From: an uncultured Elstera sp.
GTDB lineage: Bacteria; Pseudomonadota; Alphaproteobacteria; Elsterales; Elsteraceae
Direction: 5' to 3'
Assembly: GCA_903931835.1 (NCBI GenBank)
Contig: CAIZEE010000120.1
Location: 1-52,845, forward strand
DNA length: 52,845 nt
Shown here: positions 2,498-28,094 of the stretch, piece after piece
Layout: each line of letters opens with the position of its first letter
Position numbering within the stretch: the stretch's first letter is position 1
Position numbers and translations under genes: made by a program
Notes under the pieces: model-generated
Told to the model about the DNA's origin: nothing
Databases searched by the model: none
What the model saw: the letters and a program-made list of their open reading frames with translations, nothing else

Positions 2498-4270
2498 TTG
2501 ACCGATTATCAGATGCTACCGTCGCCACCCGCCGCGTCTGGATCCCGCAAATCGCGGCCAGTTTTGCTGGTCGCCGCCCTGGCCGCAGTCGGCCTGTTCG
2601 GCTGCACACCCAATCCATCCTCGCAATCGGCCGGCCCGGCATCCTCAAGCAGCGACGGCACATCGTCGTTTGGCGCCTATCTGGCGGGAACGGCGGCGGC
2701 GGCGGCCGGCGATTTCGGCGTTGCGGCGCATTATCTGGAACGCGCACTGAGCGATGACCCGCAAAACGTGGAATTGTTGCGCGAGACCTTCACCGTCGAA
2801 ACCGGGGAAGGCAACATCCCGCGCTCGCTCGATCTGGCGCGCCGGCTGATCGCGGTCGAACCCGATTTCACCGTCGCCGACATGGTTCTGGCGGTCGAGG
2901 ATATCAAAGCCGGTCGGTTGGATGCAGGCGATAAACGCCTAGCCGCGTTGCCTGCGACCGGGCTCAATAATTTGCTGGTGCCGCTGTCGCGCGCCTGGAT
3001 CGCTGCTGGACAGAAAAACAAGGACGCCGCTATCGAGTTTATGAAGCCGCTATCGACCGTGAGCGCCTTCCAGACGCTCTATAACCTGCATCTTGGTCTC
3101 ATGATGGATTTGATCGGCGATCAGCAAGAGGCGCAGGCCCGCTTTGATGCGATGTTCAACGCCGATTCTCAGCCGCCCTTCCGCGTTATCGAACTGGTCG
3201 GAAATTACTATGAGCGTCACGGTCAAGCGGATCGGGCACGTCAACTCTACAACGATTTCCAGACGCATAATCCGGACAACGTCTTGTTGTCCGTGGCTTT
3301 CCAGCGCCTGACAAGCGGTACCATTCCCCACGCATCGGTCGCGTCATTGCGCGATGGTCTGGCAGAGGCGATTTTCGACATTGCTTTCATCGTCCAGCAC
3401 GAACGGCCAGGCGATCAACTAGCGCTGGTCTATAACCGGGTCGCCTTGTCGCTGAAGCCGGATTTCCCGATGGGTGAGATGCTGCTCGCCGATATCCTGG
3501 AAACGGCCAATCGGGAAAAAGAGGCTATCGCGATCTATCAGCAGGTATCGCCGGACTCGCCTTTCCGTTGGAGCGCCAGGCTTCGCGCAGCGGGTGCCGA
3601 AGATGCCGCCGGAGAGACCGATCGCGCGGTCGCCGAACTGCAGCAGATGTCGGTGGAGGCCCCCGAACGCGCCGACGCATTGGCCGAACTTGGCGACATT
3701 CTGCGCTCGCATGAGCGGTTTGCCGAGGCGGCCGTAGCCTATGACACCGCCATCTCCCGCCTGCCCAAGATTGAGAAGCGCGATTGGCCCTTGCTGTTCA
3801 ACCGCGCCATCGCGTTCGAACGGAATCATCAGATCCCGCAAGCGGTCGCCGATCTGGAGCACACGCTGCAGCTTCAGCCCGATGAGCCCTATGTGCTGAA
3901 TTATCTGGGGTATGTCTGGGTTGAAAAGGGCATCAACCTGCCCCGTGCGCGTCAGATGATCGAGAAGGCAGTGACGCTGAAGCCCAATGACGGCAGCATC
4001 GTGGATAGTTTGGGCTGGGCCTGCTATCAGCAAGGGCAGTTCAAGGATGCCGTCCGCTTCCTGGAACGCGCCGCAGAGCTCCGGCCGCATGACCCGACCA
4101 TCAATGACCATCTGGGCGATGCCTATTGGCAGGTCGGCCGCCATGCCGAGGCGCACACGCAATGGCAGCGGGCTTTATCCTTTGACGCGGACCCGCCCTT
4201 GCGCGCCGCGATCGCCCATAAGCTTGAAAGCGGCGCTACCAAGCCGAAATCCGCCGAGCAGCATTTGTGA
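2498..4270 (+). CDS. TPR-repeat lipoprotein
   Basis: 590-aa ORF with a lipobox-type signal (LVAALAAVGLFGC) and repeated TPR-like helices (e.g. LGDAYWQVGRHAEAHTQWQRAL). Its stop overlaps the ispE start (GTGA at 4267..4270). The start codon is uncertain (TTG 2498 or ATG 2513). Confidence 0.85.
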   Translation: MTDYQMLPSPPAASGSRKSRPVLLVAALAAVGLFGCTPNPSSQSAGPASSSSDGTSSFGAYLAGTAAAAAGDFGVAAHYLERALSDDPQNVELLRETFTVETGEGNIPRSLDLARRLIAVEPDFTVADMVLAVEDIKAGRLDAGDKRLAALPATGLNNLLVPLSRAWIAAGQKNKDAAIEFMKPLSTVSAFQTLYNLHLGLMMDLIGDQQEAQARFDAMFNADSQPPFRVIELVGNYYERHGQADRARQLYNDFQTHNPDNVLLSVAFQRLTSGTIPHASVASLRDGLAEAIFDIAFIVQHERPGDQLALVYNRVALSLKPDFPMGEMLLADILETANREKEAIAIYQQVSPDSPFRWSARLRAAGAEDAAGETDRAVAELQQMSVEAPERADALAELGDILRSHERFAEAAVAYDTAISRLPKIEKRDWPLLFNRAIAFERNHQIPQAVADLEHTLQLQPDEPYVLNYLGYVWVEKGINLPRARQMIEKAVTLKPNDGSIVDSLGWACYQQGQFKDAVRFLERAAELRPHDPTINDHLGDAYWQVGRHAEAHTQWQRALSFDADPPLRAAIAHKLESGATKPKSAEQHL

Positions 4271-5151
4271 CCACGACGATAGTGCAGGCAGGTAACGGCG
4301 TCACCGAATCGGCGCCCGCCAAGATCAATCTATTCCTGCGCCTCACCGGTAAGCGCGACGACGGTTATCATCTGCTCGACAGCCTGGTCGGCTTCACCGA
4401 ATTCGGCGACAGCCTGACCGCCGAGCCGGCCGAAACCTTGAGCCTGACAATCGACGGCCCCTTCTCGGCCTTATTGAGCGTTGAACCCGATAATCTGGTT
4501 CTGCGCGCGGCGCGCGCTCTACAAGCGGCGACGGGGGTGCAAGCGGGCGCCCATCTGACCCTGACAAAACGCCTGCCGATCGCGTCGGGCATAGGCGGCG
4601 GTTCGAGCGATGCCGCCGCCACCCTGCGGGCGCTGTGCCGCCTATGGAGCCTCAGTATTGATCAATGCGCGCTGGAGGCGATCGGCTTGCCGCTTGGCGC
4701 TGATATTCCGGTCTGTATCGAGGCCCGGCCGGCGCGCATGACCGGGGTTGGCGAACAGGTGGAACGGCTGACGGGCCTACCCGAAGTGGCGTTGTTACTG
4801 ATCAATCCAGGCGTGGCGCTTGCGACCGGGCCGGTTTTCAAGGCGCGCAGCGGCGCGTTTACTTCGCCATTTGGCGCGTTGCCTACCCTCGCCAATGCGG
4901 CAAGCCTGGCCGAGTTGGTTCGGCAAGCGGGCAACGATCTGACCGAACCCGCCAAGGCGTTGTGCCCGCCTGTTGCAAAAGTTCTGGTGGCGCTTGAGGC
5001 GGAGCCAGATTGCCTGGCGGCGGCCATGTCAGGAAGCGGCGCCACGTGTTTTGGCGTATTTGCCAATCTGACGGCGGCGCAATCGGCTGCGGCGAGATTG
5101 GCGAAAACCGAAAGCTGGTGGGTTTGCGCCACGCTCCTTAGATCAAACTAG
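4267..5151 (+). CDS. ispE: 4-diphosphocytidyl-2-C-methyl-D-erythritol kinase
   Basis: GHMP-kinase/IspE motifs APAKINLFLRLTGKRDDGYH and PIASGIGGGSSDAAATLRAL; 294 aa; GTG start overlapping the upstream stop. Confidence 0.95.
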   Translation: MTTTIVQAGNGVTESAPAKINLFLRLTGKRDDGYHLLDSLVGFTEFGDSLTAEPAETLSLTIDGPFSALLSVEPDNLVLRAARALQAATGVQAGAHLTLTKRLPIASGIGGGSSDAAATLRALCRLWSLSIDQCALEAIGLPLGADIPVCIEARPARMTGVGEQVERLTGLPEVALLLINPGVALATGPVFKARSGAFTSPFGALPTLANAASLAELVRQAGNDLTEPAKALCPPVAKVLVALEAEPDCLAAAMSGSGATCFGVFANLTAAQSAAARLAKTESWWVCATLLRSN

Positions 5152-5327: not shown

Positions 5328-5828
5328 CTATTCGGTCTCGCGCGGATATCGCTGTTCGATTTCCAGTACTGCGAGGCGGGCGAGCTTTTTCAAAAGGATG
5401 AGCTCCCTATCCTCGACACGCGGATGCGCCACGGAATCGATGATGCATAACGTACCGATCCGGACATTGTTTGAGGTAATCAACGGAACGCCGGCGTAGA
5501 ACCGGATATGGGGTTCGCCAGTCACGAACGGATTGTTTTTGAACTCCGGATCAGTCTTTGCATCGTTGACGATGAAGGCGTCTCTTGGTTCAAGCAGCCT
5601 TGAACAGAACGCCACGTCGAGGCTGCTTTGGCCCCTTGGTATGCCGAAAGCCGCCTTGAACCATTGCCGCTGGTCGTCCAGCAGCGAGATGACGCTGATT
5701 GGCGCATCAACCACCATGGATGCCGCGTGAACCAAGTCATCAAGGACCGCATCGGGGGCGCTGTCCATGATCTTGAGGCGGCTGAGTTCCGCCAGCCGCG
5801 CCGCCGTTTCCTTCGCTACCAGCTTCAT
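5328..5828 (-). CDS. Stand-alone GAF domain protein
   Basis: 166 aa consisting only of a GAF-type module (RLAELSRLKIMDS...QRQWFKAAFG...FYAGVPL...IGTLCIID). It is a paralog of the N-terminal GAF of the kinase at 28323..31940. RBS AAGGGGG lies upstream of the ATG. Confidence 0.85.
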   Translation of the reverse strand: MKLVAKETAARLAELSRLKIMDSAPDAVLDDLVHAASMVVDAPISVISLLDDQRQWFKAAFGIPRGQSSLDVAFCSRLLEPRDAFIVNDAKTDPEFKNNPFVTGEPHIRFYAGVPLITSNNVRIGTLCIIDSVAHPRVEDRELILLKKLARLAVLEIEQRYPRETE

Positions 5829-5910
5829 CTTTGCACCCCCTTTTGTTTATTTAACAAACGATAAGCGCCCCTGTCCCTTCAGCACGACTATTTGTAACTA
5901 CAGTATGCGT

Positions 5911-6624
5911 TCAAACTCTTCGGGTAATTACTTGGTTGAGAAGGCGACTGTTTACGGCGCTTAGCACAACCGGATCAGCATCGAACAGCTCGATCGAGCC
6001 ATCCACGCTCGGCTGCGCCAAGGTCTGCTCGTAACGCTGTTCGGCGGCAACCAGCGTAACTTCCTCGTTGCGGCGCAGCTCCAGCATCTGCACCTTACCG
6101 GTGTCGGGGAAGTAGTGAATGCGACGGGGATGAGCCCCGCGCAAATGGCCGGCGGCAATCGGCAGCCCCTCCGCATCCAGATAATCCTCGACGAAATCGG
6201 CATTCTTCCAGCCGATGGTCGCGCCGTTATTCAGCACGTTGGCGCCACTGAACACCTTTATCTCGAGGCGATCGCGCTTGGCGCCACGCATCAGCAGATC
6301 ATTGATCAGACGCTCCATGGCAAAATTGCCATAGCGCAGGCTGGCCTTCGAGGCCCCCCACTGACCGGCTTCGCTGGAGGGCAGCATGAAGTGGTTCATG
6401 CCGCCAACACCGGCGATCGGGTCGCGGATGCAGGCGGCGACACAGCTACCGAGTACGGTGATGACCGCCGTATCCAGATCGTCGCTGACATAGTGCTCGC
6501 CCGGCAGTACCCGGACCGGCGCACTGGTGGCGTCCAGAGTGGGCACGGACGAAAATGTACGTCCCATCGCGCACCGATCAAAGCGCCGGTCCAGGGTTTG
6601 CGCAATTGGCATAATCATGGTCAT
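5911..6624 (-). CDS. cheD: Chemoreceptor glutamine deamidase CheD (copy 2, with C-terminal extension)
   Basis: CheD core motifs VLGSCVAACIRDP..GVGGMNHFMLP and RYGNFAMERLIN; 237 aa. It follows cheY2 after a 31-nt gap. The exact start (6624, 6618 or 6612) is uncertain. Confidence 0.9.
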   Translation of the reverse strand: MTMIMPIAQTLDRRFDRCAMGRTFSSVPTLDATSAPVRVLPGEHYVSDDLDTAVITVLGSCVAACIRDPIAGVGGMNHFMLPSSEAGQWGASKASLRYGNFAMERLINDLLMRGAKRDRLEIKVFSGANVLNNGATIGWKNADFVEDYLDAEGLPIAAGHLRGAHPRRIHYFPDTGKVQMLELRRNEEVTLVAAEQRYEQTLAQPSVDGSIELFDADPVVLSAVNSRLLNQVITRRV

Positions 6625-6655
6625 GATCGGGCGATCCTATGTCTATCTGTGCAGC

Positions 6656-7021
6656 TCAAGCGCAAACGCGCGTGACGAGTTCGATCAGCTTCGCCGGATC
6701 GAACGGCTTGACGAGCCAGCCGGTGGCGCCTGCCGCCCGTCCTTCCGCCTTCTTCTGCGCATCGCCTTCAGTCGTCAGCATCAGAATCGGAACCGCGCGG
6801 TATTTCGGGTCGTTGCGCAGGCTGCGGATCAGAGACAGACCGTCCATTTTCGGCATGTTCAGGTCGGTGATGATCAGATCGACCGGGCTGCGGTCGAGGG
6901 ACGACAGGGCCTGCTGCCCATCTTCGGCGGATACAACCTGGAAGCCAGCGCTGCTCAACGTGTAGGCGACCAGATCGCGCATCGTCTTTGAGTCGTCTAC
7001 CGCCATAATCCGCTTTTGCAT
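6656..7021 (-). CDS. cheY: Single-domain response regulator CheY (copy 2)
   Basis: 121-aa receiver only: MAVDDSKTMRD, phospho-acceptor context DLIITDLNMPKMDG, and a LVKPF lysine motif. RBS AGGAG is 8 nt upstream. By eye it is about 80% identical to the CheY at 26298..26663. Confidence 0.95.
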   Translation of the reverse strand: MQKRIMAVDDSKTMRDLVAYTLSSAGFQVVSAEDGQQALSSLDRSPVDLIITDLNMPKMDGLSLIRSLRNDPKYRAVPILMLTTEGDAQKKAEGRAAGATGWLVKPFDPAKLIELVTRVCA

Positions 7022-7140
7022 TCGATCGTCTCCTGTTCGCCCAAGGTTTGCGGTTCCGTGTCTGACGGCCCCTGCATTCGCTTCGTGTGAACAGAAGGTA
7101 GCAACTCCTTTTGGTATTGAATGATATGAAGTGTCCTGAT

Positions 7141-7159
7141 TTGTAAGGGAAAGTTACAA
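7141..7159. promoter_or_regulatory. Palindromic candidate operator TTGTAAG-ggaaa-GTTACAA
   Basis: Inverted repeat read directly (6/7 arm complementarity; TTGTAA/TTACAA is perfect). It lies about 120 nt upstream of the cheY2 start and is near-identical to the site at 12270..12289. Confidence 0.5.
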
Positions 7160-7265
7160 TTTCTGTTTACCGCCCATTAACGATAATTTATAGTGAGAAT
7201 TTCATATATTGTAGTATTGATTTTTATAACGTCGCTTTTGGCAGTGAATTGACGCACGCCAATCC

Positions 7266-7291
7266 ACCTTTACTTACAAATATATATAAAA
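7266..7291 (+). promoter_or_regulatory. Shared AT-rich box ACCTTTACTTACAAATATATATAAAA
   Basis: Aligns with 27148..27171 (ACCTTACTCACAAATATATCAAAA), about 21 of 24 positions with two 1-2 nt indels. Both lie in AT-rich islands upstream of cheY-led operons. Confidence 0.4.
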
Positions 7292-7329
7292 CTATATTTC
7301 GTCAAACCGCTAATTAACTATACAGTATA

Positions 7330-7358
7330 TTGACGATAGCGGGCTTGAATGTTCTAAT
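7330..7358 (+). promoter_or_regulatory. Sigma70-like promoter candidate (TTGACG-N17-TCTAAT) facing the REC-EAL gene
   Basis: The hexamers and 17-nt spacer were counted by hand. If used, transcription starts near 7365, which argues against the TTG at 7374 as the translation start. Confidence 0.35.
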
Positions 7359-7547
7359 GCCGCGTGCGCATCTTTGGTCAACTTGATCGGACCGTTAGCG
7401 GCAACGATCTCGGCAGCGCACATTGAGGCCTCACGTTTCATTACAAGAGTTAGTCCTTTCCGACATGTCTCGACACACAGAAACACGGTTCGTCGATATG
7501 GTTGGCCTCAGTTCAAAGACACGCCAATCCTCCGAGGAGTCCGGGAC

Positions 7548-8828
7548 ATGATCGACAGTGCCGATATGATGATGGAAGAACATGGCTTTGAGAGTGACTA
7601 CCTGTCCCTCGCCGTATCACCCGCATCTGAGACGGTCTTTCAACCGAAGGACGTACGCCAGAACAGCGCGCAGTTCGTCGGCGCCAACCGTGTTCTGATC
7701 GTCGATGACGACCCACAGATCCAACGGTTGCTGTCGCAGGTTGCCCGTCGGGTCGGTTATGAAACCATTGCAGCCGACACGATAGATAGCGCACTGGAAT
7801 CGATTCAGGGTGGCGCTGCACTGATCCTGCTCGATCTCCAGCTTGACGGCTGCGACGGCCTTGGCCTGATCGATCGCTTGTCTCTGTCGCATCCCGGCAC
7901 GCCGATCGTGCTAATGAGCGGCTGCGACCCTCGGCTGCTGACGATGGCGGAGAATGCCTGCAAGGAGCATGACTGCACCATCGCCGGCGTCCTGTCCAAG
8001 CCGTTTGAGATGTCGGCGCTCGCCACGATTCTAAAACGCTATCGCCGTGATACGGCGGAGACGGCACGTCAGCGACTGGAACAGGCGATGCGCACCGGCG
8101 CCATCGTTGCGCATTATCAACCGATTGTTGATCTGCAGACCGGAATTCTGGCTGGCGCCGAAGCGCTGGTCCGGTGGGCGCATCCCGAGCTTGGCTTGCT
8201 GTCGCCGGCCAACATCATTCCGCAGGCGGAGGAAAACGGTCTGATGCCGGACTTGACCTTCCTGATGCTGGAACAGGCAATCCGAGACTGGGGAAATTTA
8301 CCGGTTGATTACCGAAACCTAAATGTCGCGGTCAACGTGTCGCCGAGCGTGCTGGCGGATGATCATCTGGTCGTGAAGGTCGTGGAACTGCTCAAGACCT
8401 ATGATTTGCCGCCGGAGCGTCTCACCCTCGAGATCACGGAATCAGCCAGCCTGCTGGACGTTCCCAAGGTTCGCACAGCGCTGTGCCGTCTGCGCCTTCT
8501 CGGCGTGGAATTGTCGTTGGACGATTTTGGTACCGGTTATTCGTCACTCCTGGCGCTGCGCGATCTGCCGTTCAACAAGGTCAAGCTCGACCGGGCATTC
8601 GTCACCCATGCCGATGCCCAGCCCGAACAGCTCGCCATTGCAACCTCGGTCACCCGCCTGGTCCACGACCTCAACCTTAAGCTCGTTGGCGAAGGAATCG
8701 AGTCACAGCAGTGTTTCGATCTATCTCGACAGATTGGCATGGACTACGGACAAGGCTTTTTGATCGCGCGTCCAATTGGCTATAGCGATTTCAGAAAATA
8801 CGCTTGTATGCATCCAAGCATGAACTAG
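7548..8828 (+). CDS. Response-regulator receiver + EAL domain protein (c-di-GMP phosphodiesterase)
   Basis: REC (VLIVDDDPQIQ...LILLDLQLDG...SKPF) followed by an EAL domain with catalytic signatures (EALVRW, LEITES, DDFGTGYSS, KLDRAF, GEGIES, QG). The track ORF extends to TTG 7374. I prefer ATG 7548, preceded by GAGGAG 8 nt upstream. The lower-GC 7374-7547 stretch looks non-coding. Confidence 0.85.
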   Translation: MIDSADMMMEEHGFESDYLSLAVSPASETVFQPKDVRQNSAQFVGANRVLIVDDDPQIQRLLSQVARRVGYETIAADTIDSALESIQGGAALILLDLQLDGCDGLGLIDRLSLSHPGTPIVLMSGCDPRLLTMAENACKEHDCTIAGVLSKPFEMSALATILKRYRRDTAETARQRLEQAMRTGAIVAHYQPIVDLQTGILAGAEALVRWAHPELGLLSPANIIPQAEENGLMPDLTFLMLEQAIRDWGNLPVDYRNLNVAVNVSPSVLADDHLVVKVVELLKTYDLPPERLTLEITESASLLDVPKVRTALCRLRLLGVELSLDDFGTGYSSLLALRDLPFNKVKLDRAFVTHADAQPEQLAIATSVTRLVHDLNLKLVGEGIESQQCFDLSRQIGMDYGQGFLIARPIGYSDFRKYACMHPSMN

Positions 8829-8906
8829 AAATTCAATCAGCAAGCGCGCGACGCCTTACCACAATATCATTCCATGCACATCGATATGGGGGCCTATCAC
8901 TTCGAT

Positions 8907-8922
8907 TTAACTGCGCGTTAAC
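8907..8922. promoter_or_regulatory. CtrA-box-like sequence TTAA-N7-TTAAC
   Basis: TTAACTGCGCGTTAAC read directly, about 175 nt upstream of the CHASE kinase ATG (9097). It matches the established alphaproteobacterial CtrA consensus TTAA-N7-TTAAC. Confidence 0.3.
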
Positions 8923-9096
8923 AACCCAGACGATATCGTAATCTTTGACGCTCGGCGAAACTTACGTCGAACGGCAGGGCGGTTACTCGACCAAAGGTAC
9001 ATTTTTAGGTTGTGATTGTCTGCTGCTTCCCCGCAGGCAGATATGAGAGAGGCTTATTCCGCGTGAGCGGGGAGCGCGAAGGTCAGGCCTATTCGC

Positions 9097-11823
9097 ATGG
9101 TTTCCTGGACGCCTAGTCTCAACACCAGTTCGGGAAAGCCCCGGAAGCTGTTGTGGTTTCAGCGTTGGCGACCGTTGATTGCGATTGTCTTTATCGGCGT
9201 GGCGCTGTCCTGCCTTGCCTTCGTCCTCGCCCAACAGGCGGACGACCGGCGCGTCCGCACGTCTCTCGAACTGCGCGCGCAGTGGCGCGCGCAAGACTTC
9301 CAGGCAAAGCTCCTGGCGGCGGCGGCCCCGATCGAGGCGATCGCAACCTACGTCAACACCAACGGCAATTTCACGCAGGAGCAGTTTCTGCGGCTAGCCG
9401 CTGGGACGCGTGATAACGGCGACGCGACCAGGGTCTTTGCCTGGACACCTCTGATCACCGCCGAAAACCGCGCAGCGTTCGAGCAGGCGGCAGAGGCCGA
9501 CGGTCTTGGCCCCTCTTTCATTGTCGAGCGGCGCGGTGATGGGACCGTCGTGCCCGCCAGCAGCCGCGACTTCTACGTGCCGGTCTGGCTCGAGCATCAT
9601 GGACGGACCGGCGTCGGCCCGTTACGCGGGTTGGACCTGGCCGCCGGCGAAAGGCGACGGCAGGCGATCGAGCAAGCGATCGAAACCGGTCGGCCAGTGG
9701 GTGTCGCCCCGGTGCAGTCGCTTGCCGCGCCAAACAGAGGACCCCGGTATGTCGTCACCTGGCCTATTTTCGCCTCGGGCAAAGCGCCCGCCACGCCCGC
9801 TGAACGCAAGGAGCAGATAAGGGGATTTGTCATCAGCGGGGGGGATTTTGAGACGCTGCTGGTGTCGTCGATCAAGGACACGCCCAAGATTGTCGAAGAT
9901 ATCGTCATATATATCGACGGCCAGCCCGATGGATCGGACAAACCGGCGGCGGTTTATCTGACGGATACCGATACCTTCAAGGTGACCGATCTCGACAAGA
10001 TCGGCGACCTGACAAACTCAGATGGGATCGCCATCTCCCGGCAGTTCGAGGTTCTAGACCGCCAATGGACCCTCAATTTCAAATTCAAGCCGGCGATGAT
10101 CAATCAGCTAAGATCCCCGGCATCCTGGCTTTGGCTTTCGGCGGGCCTGTTGCTGACCTTTATGGCAGCGAATTATGCCGGCCGCGAACGCTTGAAGCGC
10201 GTTCGTGTCGAAGCGGTCGCCTTGCAGCGGACGGAGGAACTGACGGCCAGCAACGAGTCGCTCAACAAAGAGGTCGCGGAGCGCGAGCGGGCCGAACACG
10301 CCCTCCTCCACCACACCAATTTATTGGGCAAGACGCTCGAAGCGTCGCCTTTGGCGATCGTCCATCTGGGACCAAACCGCGAAGTGCTGGTCTGGAACCA
10401 GGGTGCAGAAAACATGTTCGGTTATACTTCGGAAGAGGTGATGGGCCGGCAGTACCCAGTTCTGAGGGACGACGACGAGGAAAGTTTCCGTGAACTGCTT
10501 GACCGCCTGGAGAAAGGTGAAACCGTCCGTGATCGCCCGGTAGATCGCCGGCACAAGGACGGTCGAATCGTAAAGGTCAATACATCTGCCGAGGCAGTTT
10601 ATGAGAATGGCGTATTTCAGGGCGTCGTCATCGTTCTGGAGGATATGACGCAACGCTTCGCACTAGAGGCGCAGCTTCGCCAGGCGCAAAAGATGGAGGC
10701 GATTGGCCAGCTCACTGGCGGCCTTGCCCATGACTTCAATAATCTGCTGCTGGTGATCCTTGGCAATCTCGGACTGTTACTCGAAATCCGAGCCGGTGAT
10801 GGCGAGGTTGAGGAGATTTGCCGCGAAGCACGCGACGCTGCGCTGCGAGGAGCAGAACTCATCAGAAGCCTGCTCGCCTTTGCGCGGCGGCAGCCCTTGC
10901 GCCCGGAACCGATCGACGTCAACGCCCTGATCAACTCGCATTTCAGGCTTCTGCAGCGAACCCTGGGCGAACAGATCGAGGTCACTGTCGATCTGGCCCC
11001 CCGCGTGTGGACCGTCATGGCGGATACAGCGCAACTCGAAGCAGCGCTCGTCAATCTGGCGACCAACGCGCGCGACGCCATGCCCAAGGGCGGGCATCTG
11101 AAGATCGCGACATTGAACCGGCGCCTCGACAAGGATTACGCAGCCGAACATCCGGAGGTGGCGCCCGGCGATCACACGATGATCGAGGTCAGCGACAACG
11201 GCGAGGGAATGCCCCCCGAGGTGATCAGCCATATTTTTGAACCGTTCTTTACCACCAAGGAGCGCGGCGAAGGCACCGGTCTTGGCCTCAGCATGGTGTT
11301 CGGTTTCATGAAACAGTCGGGCGGCCACATCAGTGTGTATAGCGAGGTCGGCGTTGGCACGACCTTTCGTTTGTTCCTACCGCGCGCGAAGGAACCAACC
11401 TCCAGCGACGGGGTAACCGCACCACCGTTGATCCCGATCGGGCGCGGCGAGGCGATCTTGCTGGTAGAAGATAATGACTCGATCCGCCGCCTGGCCGTGC
11501 GTCAGCTGACCCAACTTGGCTATCGGGTGCATGATGTCAGCAATGTCGCCGACGCTATCGATTATCTGGAAAGCGGCAGGCTCGTCGATCTGCTGTTCAC
11601 CGATGTCATTATGCCAGGCGGCGCCGATGGCCTGGATCTCGTCCGCATCGTCCGCGCGCGCTGGCCAAGTATCAAAATCCTGATGTCGTCGGGTTTCCCC
11701 AGCACTGACACGGTATCGGAGGATTTCTCTAACCTTAACGCCCGGCTACTCAGCAAGCCCTACCAGCGCGACGAACTTGCACTTCGAGTGCGCGAGGTTC
11801 TCGACGAAGCGGATCCCTCGTGA
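9097..11823 (+). CDS. CHASE-PAS hybrid sensor histidine kinase with C-terminal receiver
   Basis: 908 aa. It has TM1 ([19 protein letters not shown]) and a periplasmic CHASE-like region ([17 protein letters not shown]...[10 protein letters not shown]...RYVVTWPIF), then TM2 and a PAS domain. The H-box is [13 protein letters not shown], followed by HATPase motifs (NARDAM, DNGEGM, GTGLGLS) and a REC (ILLVEDND...[10 protein letters not shown]...SKPY). Confidence 0.9.
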
Positions 11824-11865
11824 CGGGGCTGCGTCAGTTCGGCGTCGGGAGATCGAGGGCCTGGG

Positions 11866-12201
11866 TTAGCGGGAGGCCACGGTGATGACGATCGGCGCGT
11901 CGGACACAGAATCACACTTGGTCAACTGCGGTCGCTGATGGGCATATTTAAGAGCCGAAACGAGCTTGCCGACGGCATCGCAAACACTGCCGCCGGTAAC
12001 GGTAACACGGCCGACGGAGACGGATGCCACGCGAGGATCGATCTGTGGCTTCGGCAGGCCGGCCTGGGCGGCCCATTGTTCAACCGCATCGGACAGGCTC
12101 GCCTCGGTCGGGGTTTCCCAATGATGCTTTTCCAGCGCCGGGCCCGAACCGATCACGGTGACGGAAACGGCGATGGCAGCGCTGGCTACGAAAGCGGACA
12201 T
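11866..12201 (-). CDS. Small secreted protein, function unknown (weak TcpQ/PilL-like resemblance)
   Basis: 111 aa with a hydrophobic N-terminus (FVASAAIAVSVTVIG) and two Cys. The segment SLSDAVEQWAAQAGL...AVGKLVSAL loosely resembles TcpQ-type pilus accessory domains. It is divergent from the pilus operon. Confidence 0.5.
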   Translation of the reverse strand: MSAFVASAAIAVSVTVIGSGPALEKHHWETPTEASLSDAVEQWAAQAGLPKPQIDPRVASVSVGRVTVTGGSVCDAVGKLVSALKYAHQRPQLTKCDSVSDAPIVITVASR

Positions 12202-12269
12202 TTGATCGTTCGATCCATTTCGAGAGGCGAATCTGGATATGCGGCTGAGAAACAGTTCGTTCCAGAGTG

Positions 12270-12289
12270 TTGTAAGGTTGCGCTTACAA
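12270..12289. promoter_or_regulatory. Palindromic candidate operator TTGTAAG-gttgcg-CTTACAA
   Basis: Perfect 7-bp inverted arms read directly. It is 69 nt upstream of the 11866..12201 gene start and 182 nt upstream of the pilin ATG. Confidence 0.5.
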
Positions 12290-12365
12290 ATTTAAAATTC
12301 CCTTACGCGGCTCTGACACCAAAACCGCGAGTGTCAGCAAATGGCCAATAAAAATCACCGAGCTG

Positions 12366-12390
12366 ACAATTCCAAAAACTACTTAACTCG
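12366..12390 (+). promoter_or_regulatory. 25-nt conserved box ACAATTCCAAAAACTACTTAACTCG, pilin leader
   Basis: Differs at one position from 16546..16570. It starts exactly 105 nt before the pilin ATG (12471), as its twin does before the ATG at 16651. Confidence 0.55.
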
Positions 12391-12470
12391 TCTGCATTCA
12401 CAATTATCACGACAGTGCTCTGGCAGGCCGAACCCAACCCAACGGGCTTGCGGTAACCAGGAGCAAGTCG

Positions 12471-12989
12471 ATGATTACCGTATTCAACTCCAAACGTTTT
12501 CTGATCACTGCCAGCACGGCAGCCATGCTTGTGTCGGGCCTGTTCGCGCCATCAGCGAATGCATCGACAACGACAACGTCGGCCTTCCCGGTGACAGCCA
12601 CCGTGTTGTCGGCCTGCATCGTCACGGCCTCGCCGCTCGCCTTCGGCAACTACAACCCGACCTCGGCAACGCCGTTGACCGCCAACACCAACGTCCTGGT
12701 CACCTGCACGTTCGGCACGCCCTACAATGTGGGACTGAACCAGGGTCTCGGCACCGGCGCTACGATCACCAATCGCAAGATGATGTCCGGCGTCAATTCC
12801 CTGACCTATCAGCTATTCCAGGACGCGGGCCACACGACCAATTGGGGCCAGACGATCGGCACCGACACCGAAACCGGCACCGGCACCGGTGTGGCGCAGA
12901 ACTATGTCGTCTATGGCAGCATCCCGGCCTCGCAAGTAGCACCCGCCGGCCTTTATGCCGACACCATCACCGTATCCGTAACCTACTGA
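12471..12989 (+). CDS. SCPU-domain (spore coat protein U / Csu-type) pilin subunit
   Basis: 172 aa. It has a signal peptide ending SANA, a Cys pair (SACIV...LVTCTFG), a Thr/Gly-rich body and a C-terminal beta-strand ADTITVSVTY, typical of SCPU/CsuA-B-like subunits. RBS AGGAG lies upstream. Confidence 0.85.
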   Translation: MITVFNSKRFLITASTAAMLVSGLFAPSANASTTTTSAFPVTATVLSACIVTASPLAFGNYNPTSATPLTANTNVLVTCTFGTPYNVGLNQGLGTGATITNRKMMSGVNSLTYQLFQDAGHTTNWGQTIGTDTETGTGTGVAQNYVVYGSIPASQVAPAGLYADTITVSVTY

Positions 12990-16523: not shown

Positions 16524-16545
16524 ACGCCGTGTGTCGGCGCGCCTT

Positions 16546-16570
16546 ACAATTCCGAAAACTACTTAACTCG
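16546..16570 (+). promoter_or_regulatory. 25-nt conserved box ACAATTCCGAAAACTACTTAACTCG, second copy
   Basis: Twin of 12366..12390 (24/25 identical). It starts 105 nt before the ATG of the small ORF at 16651. Confidence 0.55.
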
Positions 16571-16860: not shown

Positions 16861-17577
16861 CTAGTTGCGCTTCGGCACGAACATATAGCCGGCGCCGCGA
16901 ACGGTTCGGATCAAGCTCGGCAAGTCAGGATCAAGGTCGAGCTTCTTGCGCAGATTGCTCACGTGAACATCGATACTGCGGTCCATAGGATCCCAATCGC
17001 GCCCGGCGGCAGCGCTCATCAAATCGTCGCGCACAATGACACGGCCCGGATTGCGAACCAGCAGCGCTAGGATTCGATATTCCGCCTGTGTCAGATGAAG
17101 CAGATCGCCATCGTCGGATTTCACCAACTGGCTGGTCGGGTCAAGCACCCAGCCGGCAAAGCTGATCTTCTCATCGGCAGGCGCCTCCACCTGGATTGCC
17201 GCCTTCTCCGTCCGTCTCAGAATCGTCCTGATCCTGGCGAGCAATTCGCGGAACTCGAACGGCTTCGACAGATAGTCGTCAGCCCCCAGTTCCAGCCCGA
17301 TCACCTTATCGATCGTCTCATTCTTGCCGGTCAGCATGATGATCGGCACATCGCTGCGCGCACGAAGCCATTTCAAGGCACTCCAGCCATCCTCGTCGGG
17401 CAATCCGACATCGAGCAGCACAAGATCGACCTGTGTCGACTCGACGGTTCTGCGCATCGCTGCGACCGTATCGGAATCCGATACCGCGTAGCCTTCGCGT
17501 TCGAGATAGGTATGCAGCAATTTGGCGATCGACCGATCGTCCTCGACCGCTAAGATTTTGACTTTATTCGTAATCAT
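16861..17577 (-). CDS. OmpR/PhoB-family DNA-binding response regulator
   Basis: 238 aa. REC (ILAVEDD...LVLLDVGLPDEDG...SKPF) plus a winged-helix output (LTQAEYRILALL...IDVHVSNLRKKL...IRTVRGAGYMF). There is no adjacent kinase. It lies 110 nt downstream of the last che-operon gene on the same strand. Confidence 0.95.
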   Translation of the reverse strand: MITNKVKILAVEDDRSIAKLLHTYLEREGYAVSDSDTVAAMRRTVESTQVDLVLLDVGLPDEDGWSALKWLRARSDVPIIMLTGKNETIDKVIGLELGADDYLSKPFEFRELLARIRTILRRTEKAAIQVEAPADEKISFAGWVLDPTSQLVKSDDGDLLHLTQAEYRILALLVRNPGRVIVRDDLMSAAAGRDWDPMDRSIDVHVSNLRKKLDLDPDLPSLIRTVRGAGYMFVPKRN

Positions 17578-17686
17578 ATCAGCCCCACTCGTTGCCCAGT
17601 CCTGATCCGCAGCGGCGTCGACGCTCTTTGCTCAAGGGACCCACGAAACTGGCATTTTGGAAGGTTTTCTCTCCAGCTCCACGCCA

Positions 17687-18823
17687 TCAAAACAGCTCAA
17701 CCGATCCGGCTTCTGAGTCGCCGGACGGCGTAACCGCCACGTCACTTTCGCTGCCACCGTCGATCACCCTGGAAACGAAGCGAGCCCGCATTTCGCTTAG
17801 CTTGTATCGAGCTGACAGCCCCTTCAGCCAGGCAACGTCGCCCGCCGTCTGAGCGGCGGCTTCCCCTGGTGACGCGCCGCCGCTTTCGCGCTGCCATTCG
17901 CCGACCGCATCGCCGATGATCGTCAGCGTGTCGAGAACCTGCTCAAGGCGCTGCGTGACCCGATCCTGGAACTGCATGCCGGTGACAATGGCGCTGATCC
18001 GTGCCGAAATCTGATGCTGATCGGAAGCCGCCTCGGTCACGATCTGGCCGAGATTGATGCCCCGCTGGATCATCGCCTCGACCAGCCTTTGCAGTTTCGA
18101 GCGCCGTTCGATATCGCTCGACATGTCGACGGAGGCGACTTCCTGAAGCGCAGTGCGGCTATCACGAATGGAGCGCACGACTTCCGACATGTGATGCCGC
18201 ATCGTTCCTGACAGGGACTTGGTCGATTGCGACAGGGTCCCGAGTTCATTGGCGACAACGCCAAACGCCTGACCGATGGTACCGCCTGCACGAGCGGCTT
18301 CGATTCGGGCGTTGACGGCGAGCATATTGGCCTGGCGATTAACGCCTTCGACCTTGTCGATGCACGCCTCGACCTGATCGACGCTCTTGCTCATGCCCTC
18401 CAACACGCCAACCATGGCAAGGGCGTTTTCCGAAAGAGCGCTGACCTTCGACACGATGTCGTCGAGAATCGTGTCGAACATGGCCGCCATCGCGCTGAGT
18501 TCGATCTCGTCGCCATCGACCGAAACCCGTCCCGCCATTGAGGCGATCTCTGCAATCCGGTCGCTCTGCGACTGCGCCTTGCCGGCGACATCGCGGAACG
18601 ACTCGACGACGACACCCGTCTCGGTCTCCATATCGCGGGAGGCATGTTTGATCTCGGCGCCGGCACTCTCGATAATCCGACGCAACATGCCGGCCCGCGA
18701 CGCCCAATGACGAACGAACCCGACGATGCGCGATGTCCCCTGTTCGGTGGCGCCGTGCACCACCCCGACATCGTCGCTTCCCGGGATCGGTTCCTTGGTC
18801 AAAACAGAAACGTTCATGCTCAC
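17687..18823 (-). CDS. Soluble, divergent MCP-signalling-domain protein
   Basis: 378 aa with no TM segment. It has a recognisable but degenerate MCP hairpin tip (NRQANMLAVNARIEAARAGGTIGQAFGVVANELGTLSQS, versus the canonical [32 protein letters not shown] found in the neighbouring MCP). It ends in GSVELF. Confidence 0.75.
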   Translation of the reverse strand: MSMNVSVLTKEPIPGSDDVGVVHGATEQGTSRIVGFVRHWASRAGMLRRIIESAGAEIKHASRDMETETGVVVESFRDVAGKAQSQSDRIAEIASMAGRVSVDGDEIELSAMAAMFDTILDDIVSKVSALSENALAMVGVLEGMSKSVDQVEACIDKVEGVNRQANMLAVNARIEAARAGGTIGQAFGVVANELGTLSQSTKSLSGTMRHHMSEVVRSIRDSRTALQEVASVDMSSDIERRSKLQRLVEAMIQRGINLGQIVTEAASDQHQISARISAIVTGMQFQDRVTQRLEQVLDTLTIIGDAVGEWQRESGGASPGEAAAQTAGDVAWLKGLSARYKLSEMRARFVSRVIDGGSESDVAVTPSGDSEAGSVELF

Positions 18824-18849
18824 CCGACCTTCACGAGTTAAAGGCGCCT

Positions 18850-19872: not shown

Positions 19873-20528
19873 AGCGGCGTCCCCGTGTCGAACAGCTCTG
19901 CCGAGCCATCGAGCGGCGTTGTCTTGAGCATTTGGCCGTAGCTTTCCTCCGTCTCGACGATCATGAGATCCGACTGACGGCGCAGTTCGAGCATCGCCAC
20001 CTTGCCGGTGCTGGGAACGTAATGAATGCGCCGCGGGTAAATGCCGTAGAGGTGTCGCGCCGAGATCGGCAATCGTTCAGCGGCGAGATAAGACTCAACA
20101 AATTGCGCGTTAAGCCACCCGATATTGCTGCCGTTCTGAAGCACATTGGCGCCACCGAAAACCTTTATTTCCAGTGAGTTGCGGCGACCGCCGCGCACCA
20201 AAATGTCGTTGATCAGCCGCTCCATCGCGAAATTTCCGTATCTGAGGCTGGCCGTCGCCTCCCCCCAATCGCCGCTTTCGCTCTGCGGCAACATAAAATG
20301 GTTCATGCCGCCAACCTCCGCCGCGTGGTCGCGGATACAGGCGGAAACGCAGCTGCCGAGCACCGTCACGATGGTTCGCCCCGGATCGTCGGTCACGTGA
20401 TGCTCGCCCGGCAGAACACGCACCTTGGTTAGTTCGAGCGGCGCCTCTTCAAGTGACACGACAGGGAATGCCGCCGAACGGCGGTCGAAGGCCGGCTGGC
20501 AGTAAGACAGCGCGTGCCCTCGACTCAT
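19869..20528 (-). CDS. cheD: Chemoreceptor glutamine deamidase CheD (copy 1)
   Basis: CheD motifs VLGSCVSACIRDH..VGGMNHFMLP and RYGNFAMERLIN. I chose the internal ATG at 20528 (MSRGHALSY...), 2 nt after the cheR stop. The track ORF up to 20738 would overlap cheR by about 200 nt. Confidence 0.88.
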   Translation of the reverse strand: MSRGHALSYCQPAFDRRSAAFPVVSLEEAPLELTKVRVLPGEHHVTDDPGRTIVTVLGSCVSACIRDHAAEVGGMNHFMLPQSESGDWGEATASLRYGNFAMERLINDILVRGGRRNSLEIKVFGGANVLQNGSNIGWLNAQFVESYLAAERLPISARHLYGIYPRRIHYVPSTGKVAMLELRRQSDLMIVETEESYGQMLKTTPLDGSAELFDTGTPL

Positions 20529-20530
20529 GA

Positions 20531-21367: not shown

Positions 21368-21381
21368 GGCCCACCCCTGCC

Positions 21382-23643: not shown

Positions 23644-23691
23644 CTCATGTCTCCTAAGGATCAGAATTCGTTGACGATTGGCGTCAGGAAG

Positions 23692-24231: not shown

Positions 24232-24250
24232 GATCGAGCGTCCTTCGGGG

Positions 24251-26287: not shown

Positions 26288-26297
26288 GCGATGTCCC

Positions 26298-26663: not shown

Positions 26664-26675
26664 GTCACACCCCCC

Positions 26676-27458: not shown

Positions 27459-28094
27459 CTAAATATCCACGCCACTTTCCAGCGTGAGCTTGACCGCTTG
27501 AACGCGGCTTTGAACTCCCAGTTTGCGATAAATCGTTCTGAGATAAAGCCCGACGGTGACGGGTTCTAGCGATAGATTCCGACCAATTTCGATGTTGCTG
27601 GCACCAGTGCAAAGCTCGCGGAGAACTTGAAATTCGCGCTTGGTGAGCGCCGAGAACACGCCCCCACCATTTGGTGACGACCCGACGGCAGAATCGACGC
27701 TCCCTGACGCATCAGAGCCTGGAAAGAACCGGTCACCTGAAGCCATGGCGCGAATGGCATTCAGCATGTCCTTTAGCCGAATCGTCTTCGGGATGAAGCC
27801 GACAGCGCCAGCCGCCCTCGCCCCCTCGGCATTCGCTGCGGATACTTCGCCGGACATGACGGCTATCGGAACATTGGGGAGTTTGCGCCTTACCGCAGCC
27901 AATCCACTGAGCCCGTTCATTCCGGGCATGTGCAGGTCCAGCACGATAAGGGCGAGCTGATCGCTATCCGCATGGGCCAGAACAGAGGCCAGATCAGCGA
28001 CGGTTTCGACGGTCAAGTCGGGGGCCAGCCCGCTGGATTGAAGCTCCAGCGTATCGGTTAGCAGGGTATGATCATCCGCGACAAGAATCCGCAT
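27459..28094 (-). CDS. NarL/FixJ (LuxR-type HTH) response regulator
   Basis: 211 aa. REC (ILVADDH...IVLDLHMPGMNG) plus a GerE/LuxR HTH (LTKREFQVLRELCTGASNIEIGRNLSLEPVTVGLYLRTIYRKLGV). It is divergent from the hybrid kinase at 28323. Confidence 0.9.
   Translation of the reverse strand: MRILVADDHTLLTDTLELQSSGLAPDLTVETVADLASVLAHADSDQLALIVLDLHMPGMNGLSGLAAVRRKLPNVPIAVMSGEVSAANAEGARAAGAVGFIPKTIRLKDMLNAIRAMASGDRFFPGSDASGSVDSAVGSSPNGGGVFSALTKREFQVLRELCTGASNIEIGRNLSLEPVTVGLYLRTIYRKLGVQSRVQAVKLTLESGVDI

Follow-up and report, generated by a model that had tools for sequence, protein, structure and literature searches.

Comparison with related loci suggests that two palindromes, P1 and P2, in the window (the whole 52,845-nt stretch of DNA analysed here) are probably operators of one sequence-specific regulator with the half-site TGTAAG, or more loosely TGTRAG. 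As far as sequence can tell, both are real, evolutionarily conserved elements and appear to be a gene switch of an ordinary kind in an uncultured bacterium of soil or lakes. The regulator would bind inverted pairs as a dimer and, in related genomes, neighbouring direct repeats as well; P1 would lie at the upstream edge of the minus-strand promoter of a cheY-cheD-GAF operon, and P2 likewise for the minus-strand gene of a 111-aa exported protein. Conservation at the edges of promoter blocks, arms that change without compensation and a half-site that recurs in arrays are what make P1 and P2 behave like sites of a single factor.

7141..7159, no strand: palindrome P1, TTGTAAGggaaaGTTACAA, that is TGTAAG-N5-GTTACA, which bounds the promoter block of the che operon on its distal side
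12270..12289, no strand: palindrome P2, TTGTAAGgttgcgCTTACAA, a perfect TGTAAG-N6-CTTACA

Both palindromes were read directly in the sequence at 7141-7159 and 12270-12289, where an earlier, sequence-only reading had placed them, and the distances that it gave are also correct (120 nt from P1 to the cheY ATG; 69 nt from P2 to the ATG of the small gene and 182 nt to that of the pilin). The arms of P2 are perfect over 7 bp, as described there, whereas those of P1 are perfect over 6 bp only, with a non-complementary G/G at the seventh position. P1 thus reads TTGTAA-N7-TTACAA and P2, wider by one base, TTGTAA-N8-TTACAA. This one-base difference in spacing is a point against a single factor, and the N4-N15 range of inverted-pair spacings seen across relatives would not be tolerable for a rigid dimer.

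P1 and P2 are the sole matches in the window to TTGTAA-N5-10-TTACAA (none of 100 whole-window shuffles had any match) and again the sole matches to the looser TGTRA-N4-10-TYACA. The earlier estimate of far below one chance occurrence was nevertheless too optimistic: of 2000 trials in which each intergenic segment was shuffled separately with its dinucleotide content kept, 2% had a 6-bp-arm inverted repeat (any sequence, spacer of 5-10 nt) that turned up in two segments, and 0.05% had TTGTAA...TTACAA specifically. Taken alone, the within-window statistics are suggestive, not decisive, and with a composition-aware chance of ~2% the case for P1 and P2 rests on comparison with relatives. TTACAA itself is mildly over-represented in the window (11 observed, 6.3 +/- 2.4 expected). 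Four isolated half-sites had also been listed, at 5890, 7273, 16543 and 27154; their coordinates are right, but none is backed by conservation, each being unconserved or part of other repeated boxes.

The related loci compared with the window are labelled L082, L083, L086, L087, L091, L093, L094, L095, L098 and L113. Allowing at most one mismatch, TGTAAG-N5/6-CTTACA occurs nine times at these promoters in ~100 kb (the window plus three related loci) and not once in 1.39 Mb of unrelated loci. A tenth match in the same ~100 kb is a ribosome-binding-site artefact.

P1 lies beyond the leader of an operon that we presume to be regulated through it, judging by position and conservation:

5328..7021, minus strand: presumed regulated operon cheY-cheD-GAF (Pfam and NCBIfam)
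6656-7021, minus strand: cheY (Pfam/NCBIfam)
5911-6624, minus strand: cheD (Pfam/NCBIfam)
5328-5828, minus strand: GAF-domain gene (Pfam/NCBIfam)
7066..7140, minus strand: promoter/leader block between P1 and cheY, which together with P1 is 92/95 identical to L087

In L087, whose CheD is 74% identical to that of the window, P1 is kept as TTGTAAGGGAAAATTACAA with its N5 spacing retained; it forms the end of the 95-nt block of 92/95 identity, and the alignment collapses past it. L087 has no cheY, and the same leader there directly precedes cheD. In L082, P1 is untouched though all four substitutions in 561 nt lie within 25 nt of it. The 12-mer GATTTGTAAGGG occurs both in P1 and in the upstream palindrome of L083/L086. 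Among CheD homologues with an organism name, those closest to the window's come from photosynthetic Bradyrhizobium.

P2 sits between two divergent units:

11866..12201, minus strand: conserved partner gene of P2, encoding a 111-aa protein that has two conserved cysteines and begins with a hydrophobic N-terminus
12290..12307, minus strand: degenerate second unit adjoining P2, CGTAAGGGAATTTTAAAT on the minus strand, recognised by alignment with L083/L086
12270..12298, plus strand: sigma-70-like promoter match TTGTAA-17-TAAAAT, 9/12 consensus positions, facing the pilin and overlapping P2
12471..16523, plus strand: Csu-type (archaic chaperone-usher) pilus operon with SCPU pilin, PapD-like chaperone, usher and second SCPU subunit (Pfam)

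By its distribution, P2 goes with the divergent 111-aa gene and not with the pilin. This gene belongs to a family of about 20 clusters and matches no Pfam or NCBIfam family. Each intact homologue in L083 and L086, two loci without pilus genes, has one or two TGTAAG-N6-CTTACA palindromes like P2 some 70 nt before it, and all three intact copies there are preceded by a conserved array that ends ~70 nt before the ATG and runs TGTAAGG -10- TGTAAGG -17- TGTAAGG -20- TGTAAGGGCATTCTTACA, one base, TGTAAGCGCAATCTTACA. The degenerate unit at 12290-12307 in the window aligns with the second perfect palindrome of this array and holds a GTAAGG half-site at 12301-12306 on the minus strand. In L087, on the other hand, the small gene is a 59-aa, internally deleted remnant and one arm of P2 is mutated (TTGTATG), while the pilin is intact and its leader ~93% identical; the -10 and the full leader to the pilin ATG are conserved there, the promoter at 12270-12298 being a consensus match only. 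P2 therefore follows the small gene into loci without pilus genes and has lost an arm where that gene decayed beside an intact pilin and leader, both of which argue that it is not primarily a pilus-control element.

The proposal that a dimeric factor co-regulates chemosensory and pilus units stands in part. One dimeric or multimeric factor and the chemosensory link are retained, the latter because P1 is conserved before the che operon and similar palindromes precede PAS-MCP genes in distant relatives, whereas the role of P2 as pilus control is not. An indirect link to the pilus is left: the small gene adjoins SCPU/chaperone/usher operons for adhesive pili in four genomes (the window, L093, L098 and L113), and P2 overlaps the pilin-facing -35/-10, so that the pilus operon may be repressed through it.

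In more distant relatives, TGTAAG/TGTGAG half-sites in several spacings precede the small gene and PAS-chemoreceptor genes. A second clade has TGTGAG-N4-CTCACA and three CTTAC-type repeats with a 10-nt period before the small gene, and TTGTAAGGCCGGCCTCACAA and TGTAAATAATTGTAAG before PAS-MCP genes, TTGTAAGGCCGGCCTCACAA being located at the edge of a conserved block. A direct repeat with a 5-bp spacer and hence a 10-bp period was found upstream of small-gene homologues in L083 (twice), L086, L091, L094 and L098, and L094/L095 have it ahead of an MCP gene as well; no such TGTAAG repeat occurs in the window even at two mismatches. Lacibacterium aquatile (L093) and L113 have the small gene beside a pilus operon and no motif, and the TGTAAG palindrome is absent from L093, L098 and L113. 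The 200 nt before each of 18 family members hold 1.70 half-sites per 100 nt, compared with 0.22 per 100 nt in intergenic DNA elsewhere in the window and 0.05 for unrelated loci. The Poisson figure for this contrast overstates significance; the promoters under comparison are homologous, so that their conservation is not fully independent. The arm variants (CTAACA, GTTACA, TGTATG, CTCACA) are single and uncompensated, which points to a protein half-site and not a hairpin.

The site centres lie ~130 nt (P1) and ~78 nt (P2) before the start codons, at the distal boundary of conserved promoter DNA, and from these distances and this position we read them as activator sites that would recruit RNA polymerase. 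No minus-strand promoter hexamers are assignable upstream of cheY or the small gene, and the choice between activator and repressor is accordingly kept tentative. Since P2 overlaps the sigma-70-like -35/-10, a factor bound there could, speculatively, also dampen pilin transcription.

A two-component response regulator is the most likely factor, given that the half-sites occur both inverted and direct and in several spacings. The window encodes two candidates:

16861..17577, minus strand: OmpR-family response regulator, first candidate, last gene of a STAS-CheY-CheA-CheW-MCP-CheR-CheD-CheB-MCP cluster
27459..28094, minus strand: NarL/FixJ-family response regulator (REC-GerE), second candidate, divergent from a hybrid kinase
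28323-31940, strand opposite to the NarL/FixJ gene (divergent): GAF-PAS hybrid kinase, by domain assignment

Our first choice, a tentative one, is the OmpR/BfmR-like regulator at 16861-17577; a NarL/FixJ-type regulator comes second and is rather unlikely, and an unlinked factor takes the remaining probability. The first protein has OmpR as its best NCBIfam match (225 bits) and is not a BfmR or OmpR orthologue by NCBIfam cut-offs; among solved structures, its DNA-binding domain scores 74.7 bits against 6zwt, 72 against 2naz (RstA/BfmR), 65 against OmpR, 57 against CpxR and 55 against RstA. Perfect 18-bp palindromes are atypical of the OmpR-family arrangement, which is a point against a factor of that family. 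The 27459-28094 protein is the only REC-GerE protein in the window, and no solved structure is closely related to its DNA-binding domain; with 66.6 bits against the UvrY/GacA model NF007018 (cut-off 280) it does not qualify as a GacA orthologue. The sequence-only reading had named this NarL-type regulator as one candidate, which the present evidence neither backs nor rejects, and the OmpR-type one is at least as good. Neither gene has a site upstream.

As the factor, the OmpR-type regulator would be the transcriptional output of the chemosensory cluster that it adjoins. An extended scenario, which we hold to be improbable, is that this cluster (16861-26957) serves Che-like signalling and not motility, its OmpR-type output acting on TGTAAG boxes to switch on accessory che genes (cheY-cheD-GAF here, PAS-MCPs in relatives) and the small exported protein found alongside Csu-type pili, and to damp the pilin promoter. 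If true, an uncultured alphaproteobacterial lineage would couple chemosensing to surface attachment transcriptionally, and the small exported protein would be a previously undescribed companion of Csu-type pili.

Other identities of the factor have to be weighed against this. In an unlikely alternative, a NarL/FixJ (GerE helix-turn-helix) regulator, encoded at 27459-28094 or elsewhere, would bind the sites as GacA/UvrY-type boxes and act on protein-coding promoters rather than small-RNA genes. NarL-type proteins use heptamers in several arrangements, which counts for it, as does the REC-GerE regulator beside a hybrid kinase in the window; in L093, L098 and L113 a REC-GerE regulator adjoins the small gene and pilus operon, although these loci are without the palindrome and their pilus-linked regulators (TVKVH...) are unlike the window protein in its recognition helix, TVGLYLRTIYRKL. 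The Gac system is gammaproteobacterial, while the closest relatives found are alphaproteobacterial, and direct repeats with a 10-bp period are foreign to GacA boxes. The identity of P2 and of the paired palindromes of L083/L086 with the UvrY/GacA box (PMC3171408), and the activation of Csu pili by a NarL-family regulator and unorthodox kinase in Burkholderia thailandensis (PMC12124856), have to be set against the low model score of the 27459-28094 protein and the fact that neither P1 nor P2 precedes an Rsm/Csr RNA. We think it improbable that the factor belongs to a different family with TGTAA-N8-TTACA-like palindromes and is encoded outside the window, be it TyrR/PhhR-like (TGTAAA-N6-TTTACA), PpsR/CrtJ-like (TGT-N12-ACA) or of CRP/FNR type. 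The clade-2 small-gene site TGTGAG-N4-CTCACA amounts to TGTGA-N6-TCACA, which is the CRP consensus, and the photosynthetic Bradyrhizobium origin of the nearest named CheD homologues also counts for this reading. P2 equals the CrtJ/PpsR consensus, with two nearby palindromes as in L083/L086 (PMC5362033), and alphaproteobacterial TyrR boxes also precede MCP genes (PMC6375630). Yet the window has no PAS/HTH_8, sigma-54-activator or CRP-family genes and no photosynthesis genes, P1 is TGT-N11-ACA with this spacing kept in L087, and rigid dimers leave the N4-N15 spacings and 10-bp direct repeats unexplained.

Two further alternatives dispense with a shared regulator. We consider it very unlikely that P2 is merely the -35 and spacer of the pilin promoter and P1 an unrelated AT-rich inverted repeat, their likeness due to chance or to an old promoter duplication. 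The 9/12 sigma-70 match, the 2% recurrence in local-composition trials and the shared 12-mer, which could reflect common descent, would fit; but the palindrome goes with the small gene where no pilin exists, both arms are conserved and not just the -35-like one, other clades have the half-site again in arrays and ahead of MCP genes, and P1 has been kept where a conserved block ends. That the palindromes act as nucleic-acid structures or in recombination, as RNA hairpins in divergent transcripts or as core sites of a site-specific recombinase inverting the 5.1-kb segment between them, is already disfavoured and hardly credible. Both sites are inverted repeats with short spacers, and the P2 minus-strand hairpin folds better than its shuffles (z = -4.0), although energies of -1.9 to -6.9 kcal/mol make for weak hairpins, P1 folds the same as shuffles, arm changes in relatives are never compensated and direct-repeat half-sites are unable to form hairpins. 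Strand exchange by tyrosine recombinases requires spacers that match, whereas the spacers of P1 and P2 are unlike in both sequence and length; there is no recombinase gene nearby, and L087 has the same gene order and orientation between the sites. The proposed operators of one shared regulator can be compared with several known systems.

The published UvrY/GacA box is an 18-bp TGTAAG-N6-CTTACA (PMC3171408). P2 is identical to it at 12/12 positions and the paired palindromes of L083/L086 match it letter for letter, in contrast to P1 with its N5 spacer and right arm GTTACA. As in Gac/Rsm systems, the site lies upstream of a presumably activated promoter, and the window has genes for hybrid kinases and a REC-GerE regulator; unlike in those gammaproteobacterial systems, the downstream genes are protein-coding and conserved as proteins rather than Rsm/Csr RNAs, and the alphaproteobacterial relatives show further spacings and have direct repeats in addition. 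At E <= 1, Rfam gave no family in 6950-7600 or 12150-12520 that would indicate an Rsm/Csr RNA, a chance snoRNA match being all that it listed, and at gathering scores the whole window contains one tRNA and nothing else. In the csuFABCDE-bfmSR system of B. thailandensis, a NarL-family BfmR and an unorthodox kinase activate the Csu-pilus promoter, and the excerpted text of PMC12124856 contains no operator sequence. Its neighbourhood there (Csu operon, hybrid kinase, REC-GerE) is matched together with the small gene in L093, L098 and L113, loci in which the TGTAAG palindrome is absent, while the window has these genes more dispersed.

CrtJ/PpsR, with the consensus TGT-N12-ACA, represses through two nearby palindromes (PMC5362033). 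P2 fits this consensus and P1 is one base short, and the window has no PAS-HTH_8 or photosynthesis gene. Alphaproteobacterial TyrR boxes (TGTAACG-N4-CTTTACA) were reported to number one to three and to lie upstream of MCP genes as well (PMC6375630); P2 matches 10/12 positions of the TyrR consensus TGTAAA-N6-TTTACA, and the window has no sigma-54-activator-like gene and no aromatic amino-acid genes. Both systems use at least two neighbouring boxes, but 10-bp direct repeats are not theirs. Acinetobacter BfmR recognises TTACA, repeated directly over 15 bp with 5 bp between the copies, and such motifs often form clusters and are inverted in some cases; BfmR represses pilus genes, and its motif resembles those of OmpR and RstA (PMC11806355). 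This half-site (TGTAA on the other strand) is present in all arms of P1 and P2, and TTACA-N5-TTACA is matched exactly by the L083/L086 direct repeat TGTAAGGTTTTGTAAGG, though not in the window; the inverted BfmR site has a 1-bp gap, whereas the window sites are inverted with 7-8 nt between pentamers. BfmR of Acinetobacter baumannii regulates Csu pili and biofilm, and here too we see promoter clusters, occasional inverted sites and a link to SCPU pili. The window likewise encodes, beside the pilus operon, a nearby OmpR-family regulator with an OmpR/RstA/BfmR-like DNA-binding domain.

The two palindromes picked out in the sequence-only reading are both present at the positions it gave: P1, at 7141-7159 upstream of cheY-cheD-GAF, reads TTGTAAGggaaaGTTACAA, with perfect arms of only 6 bp (TTGTAA-N7-TTACAA), and P2, at 12270-12289 upstream of a gene for a 111-aa exported protein (the small gene), reads TTGTAAGgttgcgCTTACAA, with perfect arms of 7 bp (matching TTGTAA-N8-TTACAA). 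These are the sole matches to TTGTAA-N5-10-TTACAA in the 52,845 bases, and the looser pattern TGTRA-N4-10-TYACA again recovers the same two and no others. The genes that reading placed around P1 and P2 agree with our own calls, listed here, and the distances it quoted from the palindromes to those genes are all correct.

Genes around the palindromes and candidate regulators in the window
5328-5828, minus strand, GAF gene
5911-6624, minus strand, cheD
6656-7021, minus strand, cheY
7548-8828, plus strand, REC-EAL gene
9097-11823, plus strand, CHASE-PAS hybrid kinase
11866-12201, minus strand, 111-aa gene
12471-12989, plus strand, SCPU pilin, followed by chaperone, usher and a second SCPU subunit, ending at 16523
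16861-17577, minus strand, OmpR-type regulator, closing the che cluster
up to 26957, STAS-CheY-CheA-CheW-MCP-CheR-CheD-CheB-MCP cluster
27459-28094, minus strand, NarL-type regulator

Whether two copies are more than chance depends on the null that is used. Whole-window shuffles gave 0 matches, under a null that disregards the AT-rich intergenic setting of both sites; because both lie in such DNA, we shuffled each of the 25 intergenic segments separately. In 2000 trials of this kind, a 6-bp-arm inverted repeat (spacer 5-10 nt) recurred in two segments in 2%, and the TTGTAA pattern specifically in 0.05%; the within-window case for a shared motif is suggestive only. Stronger evidence comes from background counts in other DNA: TGTAAG-N5/6-CTTACA with at most one mismatch occurs 0 times in 1.39 Mb of unrelated loci and nine times at these promoters in about 100 kb (the window together with the related loci L083, L086 and L087). 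An extra L083 match at 8814-8830 falls on the start of a DUF1428 gene remnant, covering its ribosome-binding site and ATG, and was therefore dismissed as a regulatory site. The species collection contains no close genome for the source, an uncultured alphaproteobacterium; the closest matches are labelled alphaproteobacterial, the closest species-named ones being Bradyrhizobium for CheD and Lacibacterium aquatile for the small protein. A whole-collection scan with the hybrid kinase encoded between P1 and P2 returned only relatives of at most 51% identity, without synteny.

P1 is present in two contigs of the same species, and in L082 all four substitutions in the 561 nt compared fall within 25 nt of P1, with none inside it. 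At L087, a more distant locus with a 74% identical CheD and the same gene order, from which cheY and the chaperone/usher genes are absent, P1 reads TTGTAAGGGAAAATTACAA with its spacing unchanged. Window positions 7066-7160 are identical to L087 at 92 of 95 nt, in a block that spans the che leader to the far edge of P1 and ends there, and the next ~250 nt are unalignable up to the start of the REC-EAL leader. That the conserved block ends at the far edge of P1 argues that this palindrome is the distal boundary of the che-operon promoter region, and would belong to that region, not to the REC-EAL side.

The cheY gene itself (6656-7021) is missing from L087 (9462-10000), whose cheD directly follows the same promoter and leader; this is the clean gain or loss of one gene within a conserved regulatory frame. 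The che leader (7022-7140, minus strand) has a long predicted hairpin (-32.1 kcal/mol, z = -2.4) that joins CCUUCUGUUC to the Shine-Dalgarno region GAACAGGAG (7088-7097 paired with 7030-7038). The upstream pairing partner falls in a stretch 100% identical to L087, and the hairpin may exert translational control of cheY/cheD.

The 111-aa protein has just two close homologues (70-73% identity), encoded at loci without pilus genes (L083-L086), where the small gene precedes a xanthine/uracil permease gene and every intact copy has the palindrome upstream. There the palindrome is part of a conserved array in which TGTAAGG is followed at 10 nt by a second TGTAAGG, at a further 17 nt by a third and at a further 20 nt by TGTAAGGGCATTCTTACA; after one more base comes TGTAAGCGCAATCTTACA, and the array ends ~70 nt from the ATG of the small gene. 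The two L083 copies have kept the half-sites (TGTAAG, or more loosely TGTRAG) with diverged spacers between them, and all that remains of the array in the window is P2, the palindrome nearest the gene, together with half a unit beyond it (12300-12307). At L087 the gene beside the pilin is reduced to an internally deleted 59-aa remnant and one palindrome arm has changed to TTGTATG; across the mutated palindrome, the pilin leader is still ~93% identical. A palindrome found with the small gene at pilus-free loci, and losing an arm beside a decayed copy, argues that P2 goes with the small gene, and the direct control of the pilus that had been attributed to it is not borne out. The left arm of P2 is also part of a sigma-70-like TTGTAA-17-TAAAAT directed at the pilin gene, for which a transcription start near 12305 would be predicted, and P2 might in addition act on the pilin promoter as a repressing site. 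A sigma-70 scan of the minus strand showed no promoter for cheY or the small gene, and no sigma-54 or EcfG-type promoter was seen by eye. The small gene and permease gene, adjacent in L083, are split in L086 by an insertion (3052-4755) carrying a DUF3617 gene as well as an RVT_1 reverse-transcriptase gene like those of group II introns.

The 180 nt from P2 to the pilin ATG (12290-12470) are ~93% identical to L087, compared with ~74% for the proteins; they contain an inverted repeat, CTGACAC-N11-GTGTCAG (12313-12319 and 12331-12337), have no family match in Rfam, and may be either a second operator or a 5' UTR that is long and structured. L087 (4173-5140) has kept the pilin gene and its leader, with no chaperone or usher adjoining and only the small-gene remnant. 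A 28-nt box, CTKACAATTCCRAAAACTACTTAACTCG, occurs twice in the window, at 12363-12390, ~80 nt before the pilin ATG, and at 16543-16570, after the last SCPU gene and ~62 nt before a small ORF starting at 16632, and is found also in the L087 pilin leader (about 4775-4802, minus strand); it has the look of a pilus-locus promoter or leader element that was duplicated. Four isolated half-sites proposed earlier did not hold up as functional. The one at 16543-16551 is the start of this box, duplicated from the pilin leader, whose copy reads CTGACAATT at that position (including CTGACA); 5890-5898 is not conserved in L087; 7273-7281 is in DNA unalignable with L087; and 27154-27162 belongs to an AT-rich 20-mer common with 7266-7290 only. 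The AT-rich control regions at 7266-7290 (ahead of the REC-EAL gene) and 27146-27170 (ahead of the large che cluster) have in common the stretch CCTT(T)ACTYACAAATATAT, which is not conserved in L087.

An exhaustive profile search extended the small-protein family to ~20 clusters of ~110-aa proteins with a hydrophobic N-terminus, a conserved Trp and two conserved Cys, and to a 2970-aa protein carrying 14 copies of the domain; a metagenome scan with a 9-sequence alignment gave 13 loci. An AlphaFold model built from three sequences (pLDDT 43) was too poor for a fold search. The small gene lies beside SCPU/chaperone/usher operons in four genomes, and in the cultured species Lacibacterium aquatile (L093), L098 and L113 it adjoins an SCPU-chaperone-usher-SCPU operon, a REC-GerE regulator and a single REC protein, with a kinase also nearby in L093 and L098. 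This recurrence suggests that the association with Csu-type pili is old, and the 111-aa family may be an uncharacterised, unannotated accessory of archaic chaperone-usher pili.

The palindrome was not found at L093, L098 or L113; L098 has a single direct repeat, TGTGAGAGTTTGTAAC. A second clade (L091/92, L094/95, L103-L111) carries CTTAC-N5-TTTAC-N5-CTYAC followed by TGTGAG-N4-CTCACA, ~46 nt before the small-gene ATG, and a third (L100, L102, L104) has TGTAAGGAAGCTTTACCTTCCCTTACA upstream of the small gene. Neighbouring PAS-MCP genes in the second clade have TTGTAAGGCCGGCCTCACAA ~80 nt ahead of their ATG, where a conserved block once more has its edge, and also TGTAAATAATTGTAAG. The TGTGAG-N4-CTCACA site of the second clade (9940-9955 in L091, 5345-5360 in L094, and in L103-L111) takes the shape of a perfect CRP-type site, TGTGA-N6-TCACA, and a shift in regulatory code from clade to clade is possible. 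Half-sites reach 1.70 per 100 nt in the 200-nt upstream regions of 18 family members; the figure for the remaining intergenic DNA of the window is 0.22, and for unrelated loci 0.05. Because the 18 promoters are akin to one another, the formal P value overstates this difference.

Five features together argue that P1 and P2 are putative binding sites of a DNA-binding protein and not nucleic-acid structures: the half-sites are conserved at the sequence level, a change in one arm is not matched by a compensating change in the other, inverted and direct orientations both occur, the sites lie at the upstream edges of promoter blocks, and one of them decays along with its gene (L087). As RNA hairpins the palindromes would be weak (-1.9 to -6.9 kcal/mol), and a permissive Rfam search gave no family in the two control regions; their differing spacers and the unchanged gene order in L087 count against recombination sites, and both readings were rejected.

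One motif is thus common to the cheY-cheD-GAF and small-gene promoters and is kept in relatives, which supports the shared regulator put forward in the sequence-only reading, and the chemosensory side of that proposal is supported by the motif's presence at PAS-MCP promoters in relatives, as well as by P1 bounding the che promoter block. A single regulator would bind both palindromes and would most likely activate, since the palindromes are 78-130 nt from the start codons and mark the limit of the conserved DNA; more speculatively, it might repress the pilin promoter via P2. That the arrangements are so varied suggests a factor whose DNA-binding domains are flexibly tethered, as is typical of response regulators. 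If this reading is right, a small regulon would unite genes with an accessory part in chemotaxis, PAS-chemoreceptors and a new 110-aa protein family that goes with archaic chaperone-usher pili, with its DNA code defined for a group of uncultured alphaproteobacteria. Such an operator and regulon would be useful for annotation and for the regulator search, for which P1, P2 and the five-site array of L083/L086 are concrete probes.

Three published motifs are compatible with the geometry of P2, and a fourth with the half-site and direct repeats. The UvrY/GacA box, TGTAAGN6CTTACA (PMC3171408), is the same as P2 letter for letter. The NarL-type regulator, an earlier candidate, scores 66.6 bits against the GacA/UvrY model (cut-off 280), which rules it out as a GacA orthologue, and its recognition helix is unlike that of the pilus-linked regulators in L093, L098 and L113; comparison with solved structures gave no close relative of its DNA-binding domain and therefore no inference on specificity. 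This candidacy is not supported, and we consider it improbable. The CrtJ/PpsR palindrome TGTN12ACA, used in pairs (PMC5362033), also fits, as do TyrR boxes, reported in Azospirillum too and predicted before MCP genes (PMC6375630); no TyrR, PpsR or CRP-type gene is found in the window. In Acinetobacter, Csu pili are regulated by BfmR, an OmpR-family protein that represses pilus genes and recognises TTACA-N5-TTACA in clustered, sometimes inverted sites; its motif, which resembles those of OmpR/RstA (PMC11806355), fits the half-site and direct repeats. The window's OmpR-type regulator has OmpR as its best NCBIfam match, and the solved domains closest to its DNA-binding domain are 6zwt, 2naz (RstA/BfmR), OmpR, CpxR and RstA. 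It is the end gene of a complete chemosensory cluster (16861-26957, minus strand: STAS, CheY, CheA, CheW, PAS-MCP, CheR, CheD, CheB and a soluble MCP), which suggests a Che-like pathway with transcriptional output. We rank it above the NarL-type regulator, as a tentative choice; another or unlinked factor is a doubtful prospect that falls between the two, and what probability remains goes to there being no shared regulator at all, a reading that the suggestive within-window statistics leave room for and that the motif's retention in relatives argues against. Overall, these sequences point to a putative operator with its regulon, both of a kind already known, from an uncultured lineage and with no new mechanism, and a perfect "GacA box" that lies outside the gammaproteobacteria, with no small RNA behind it, is a caution for motif-based annotation.
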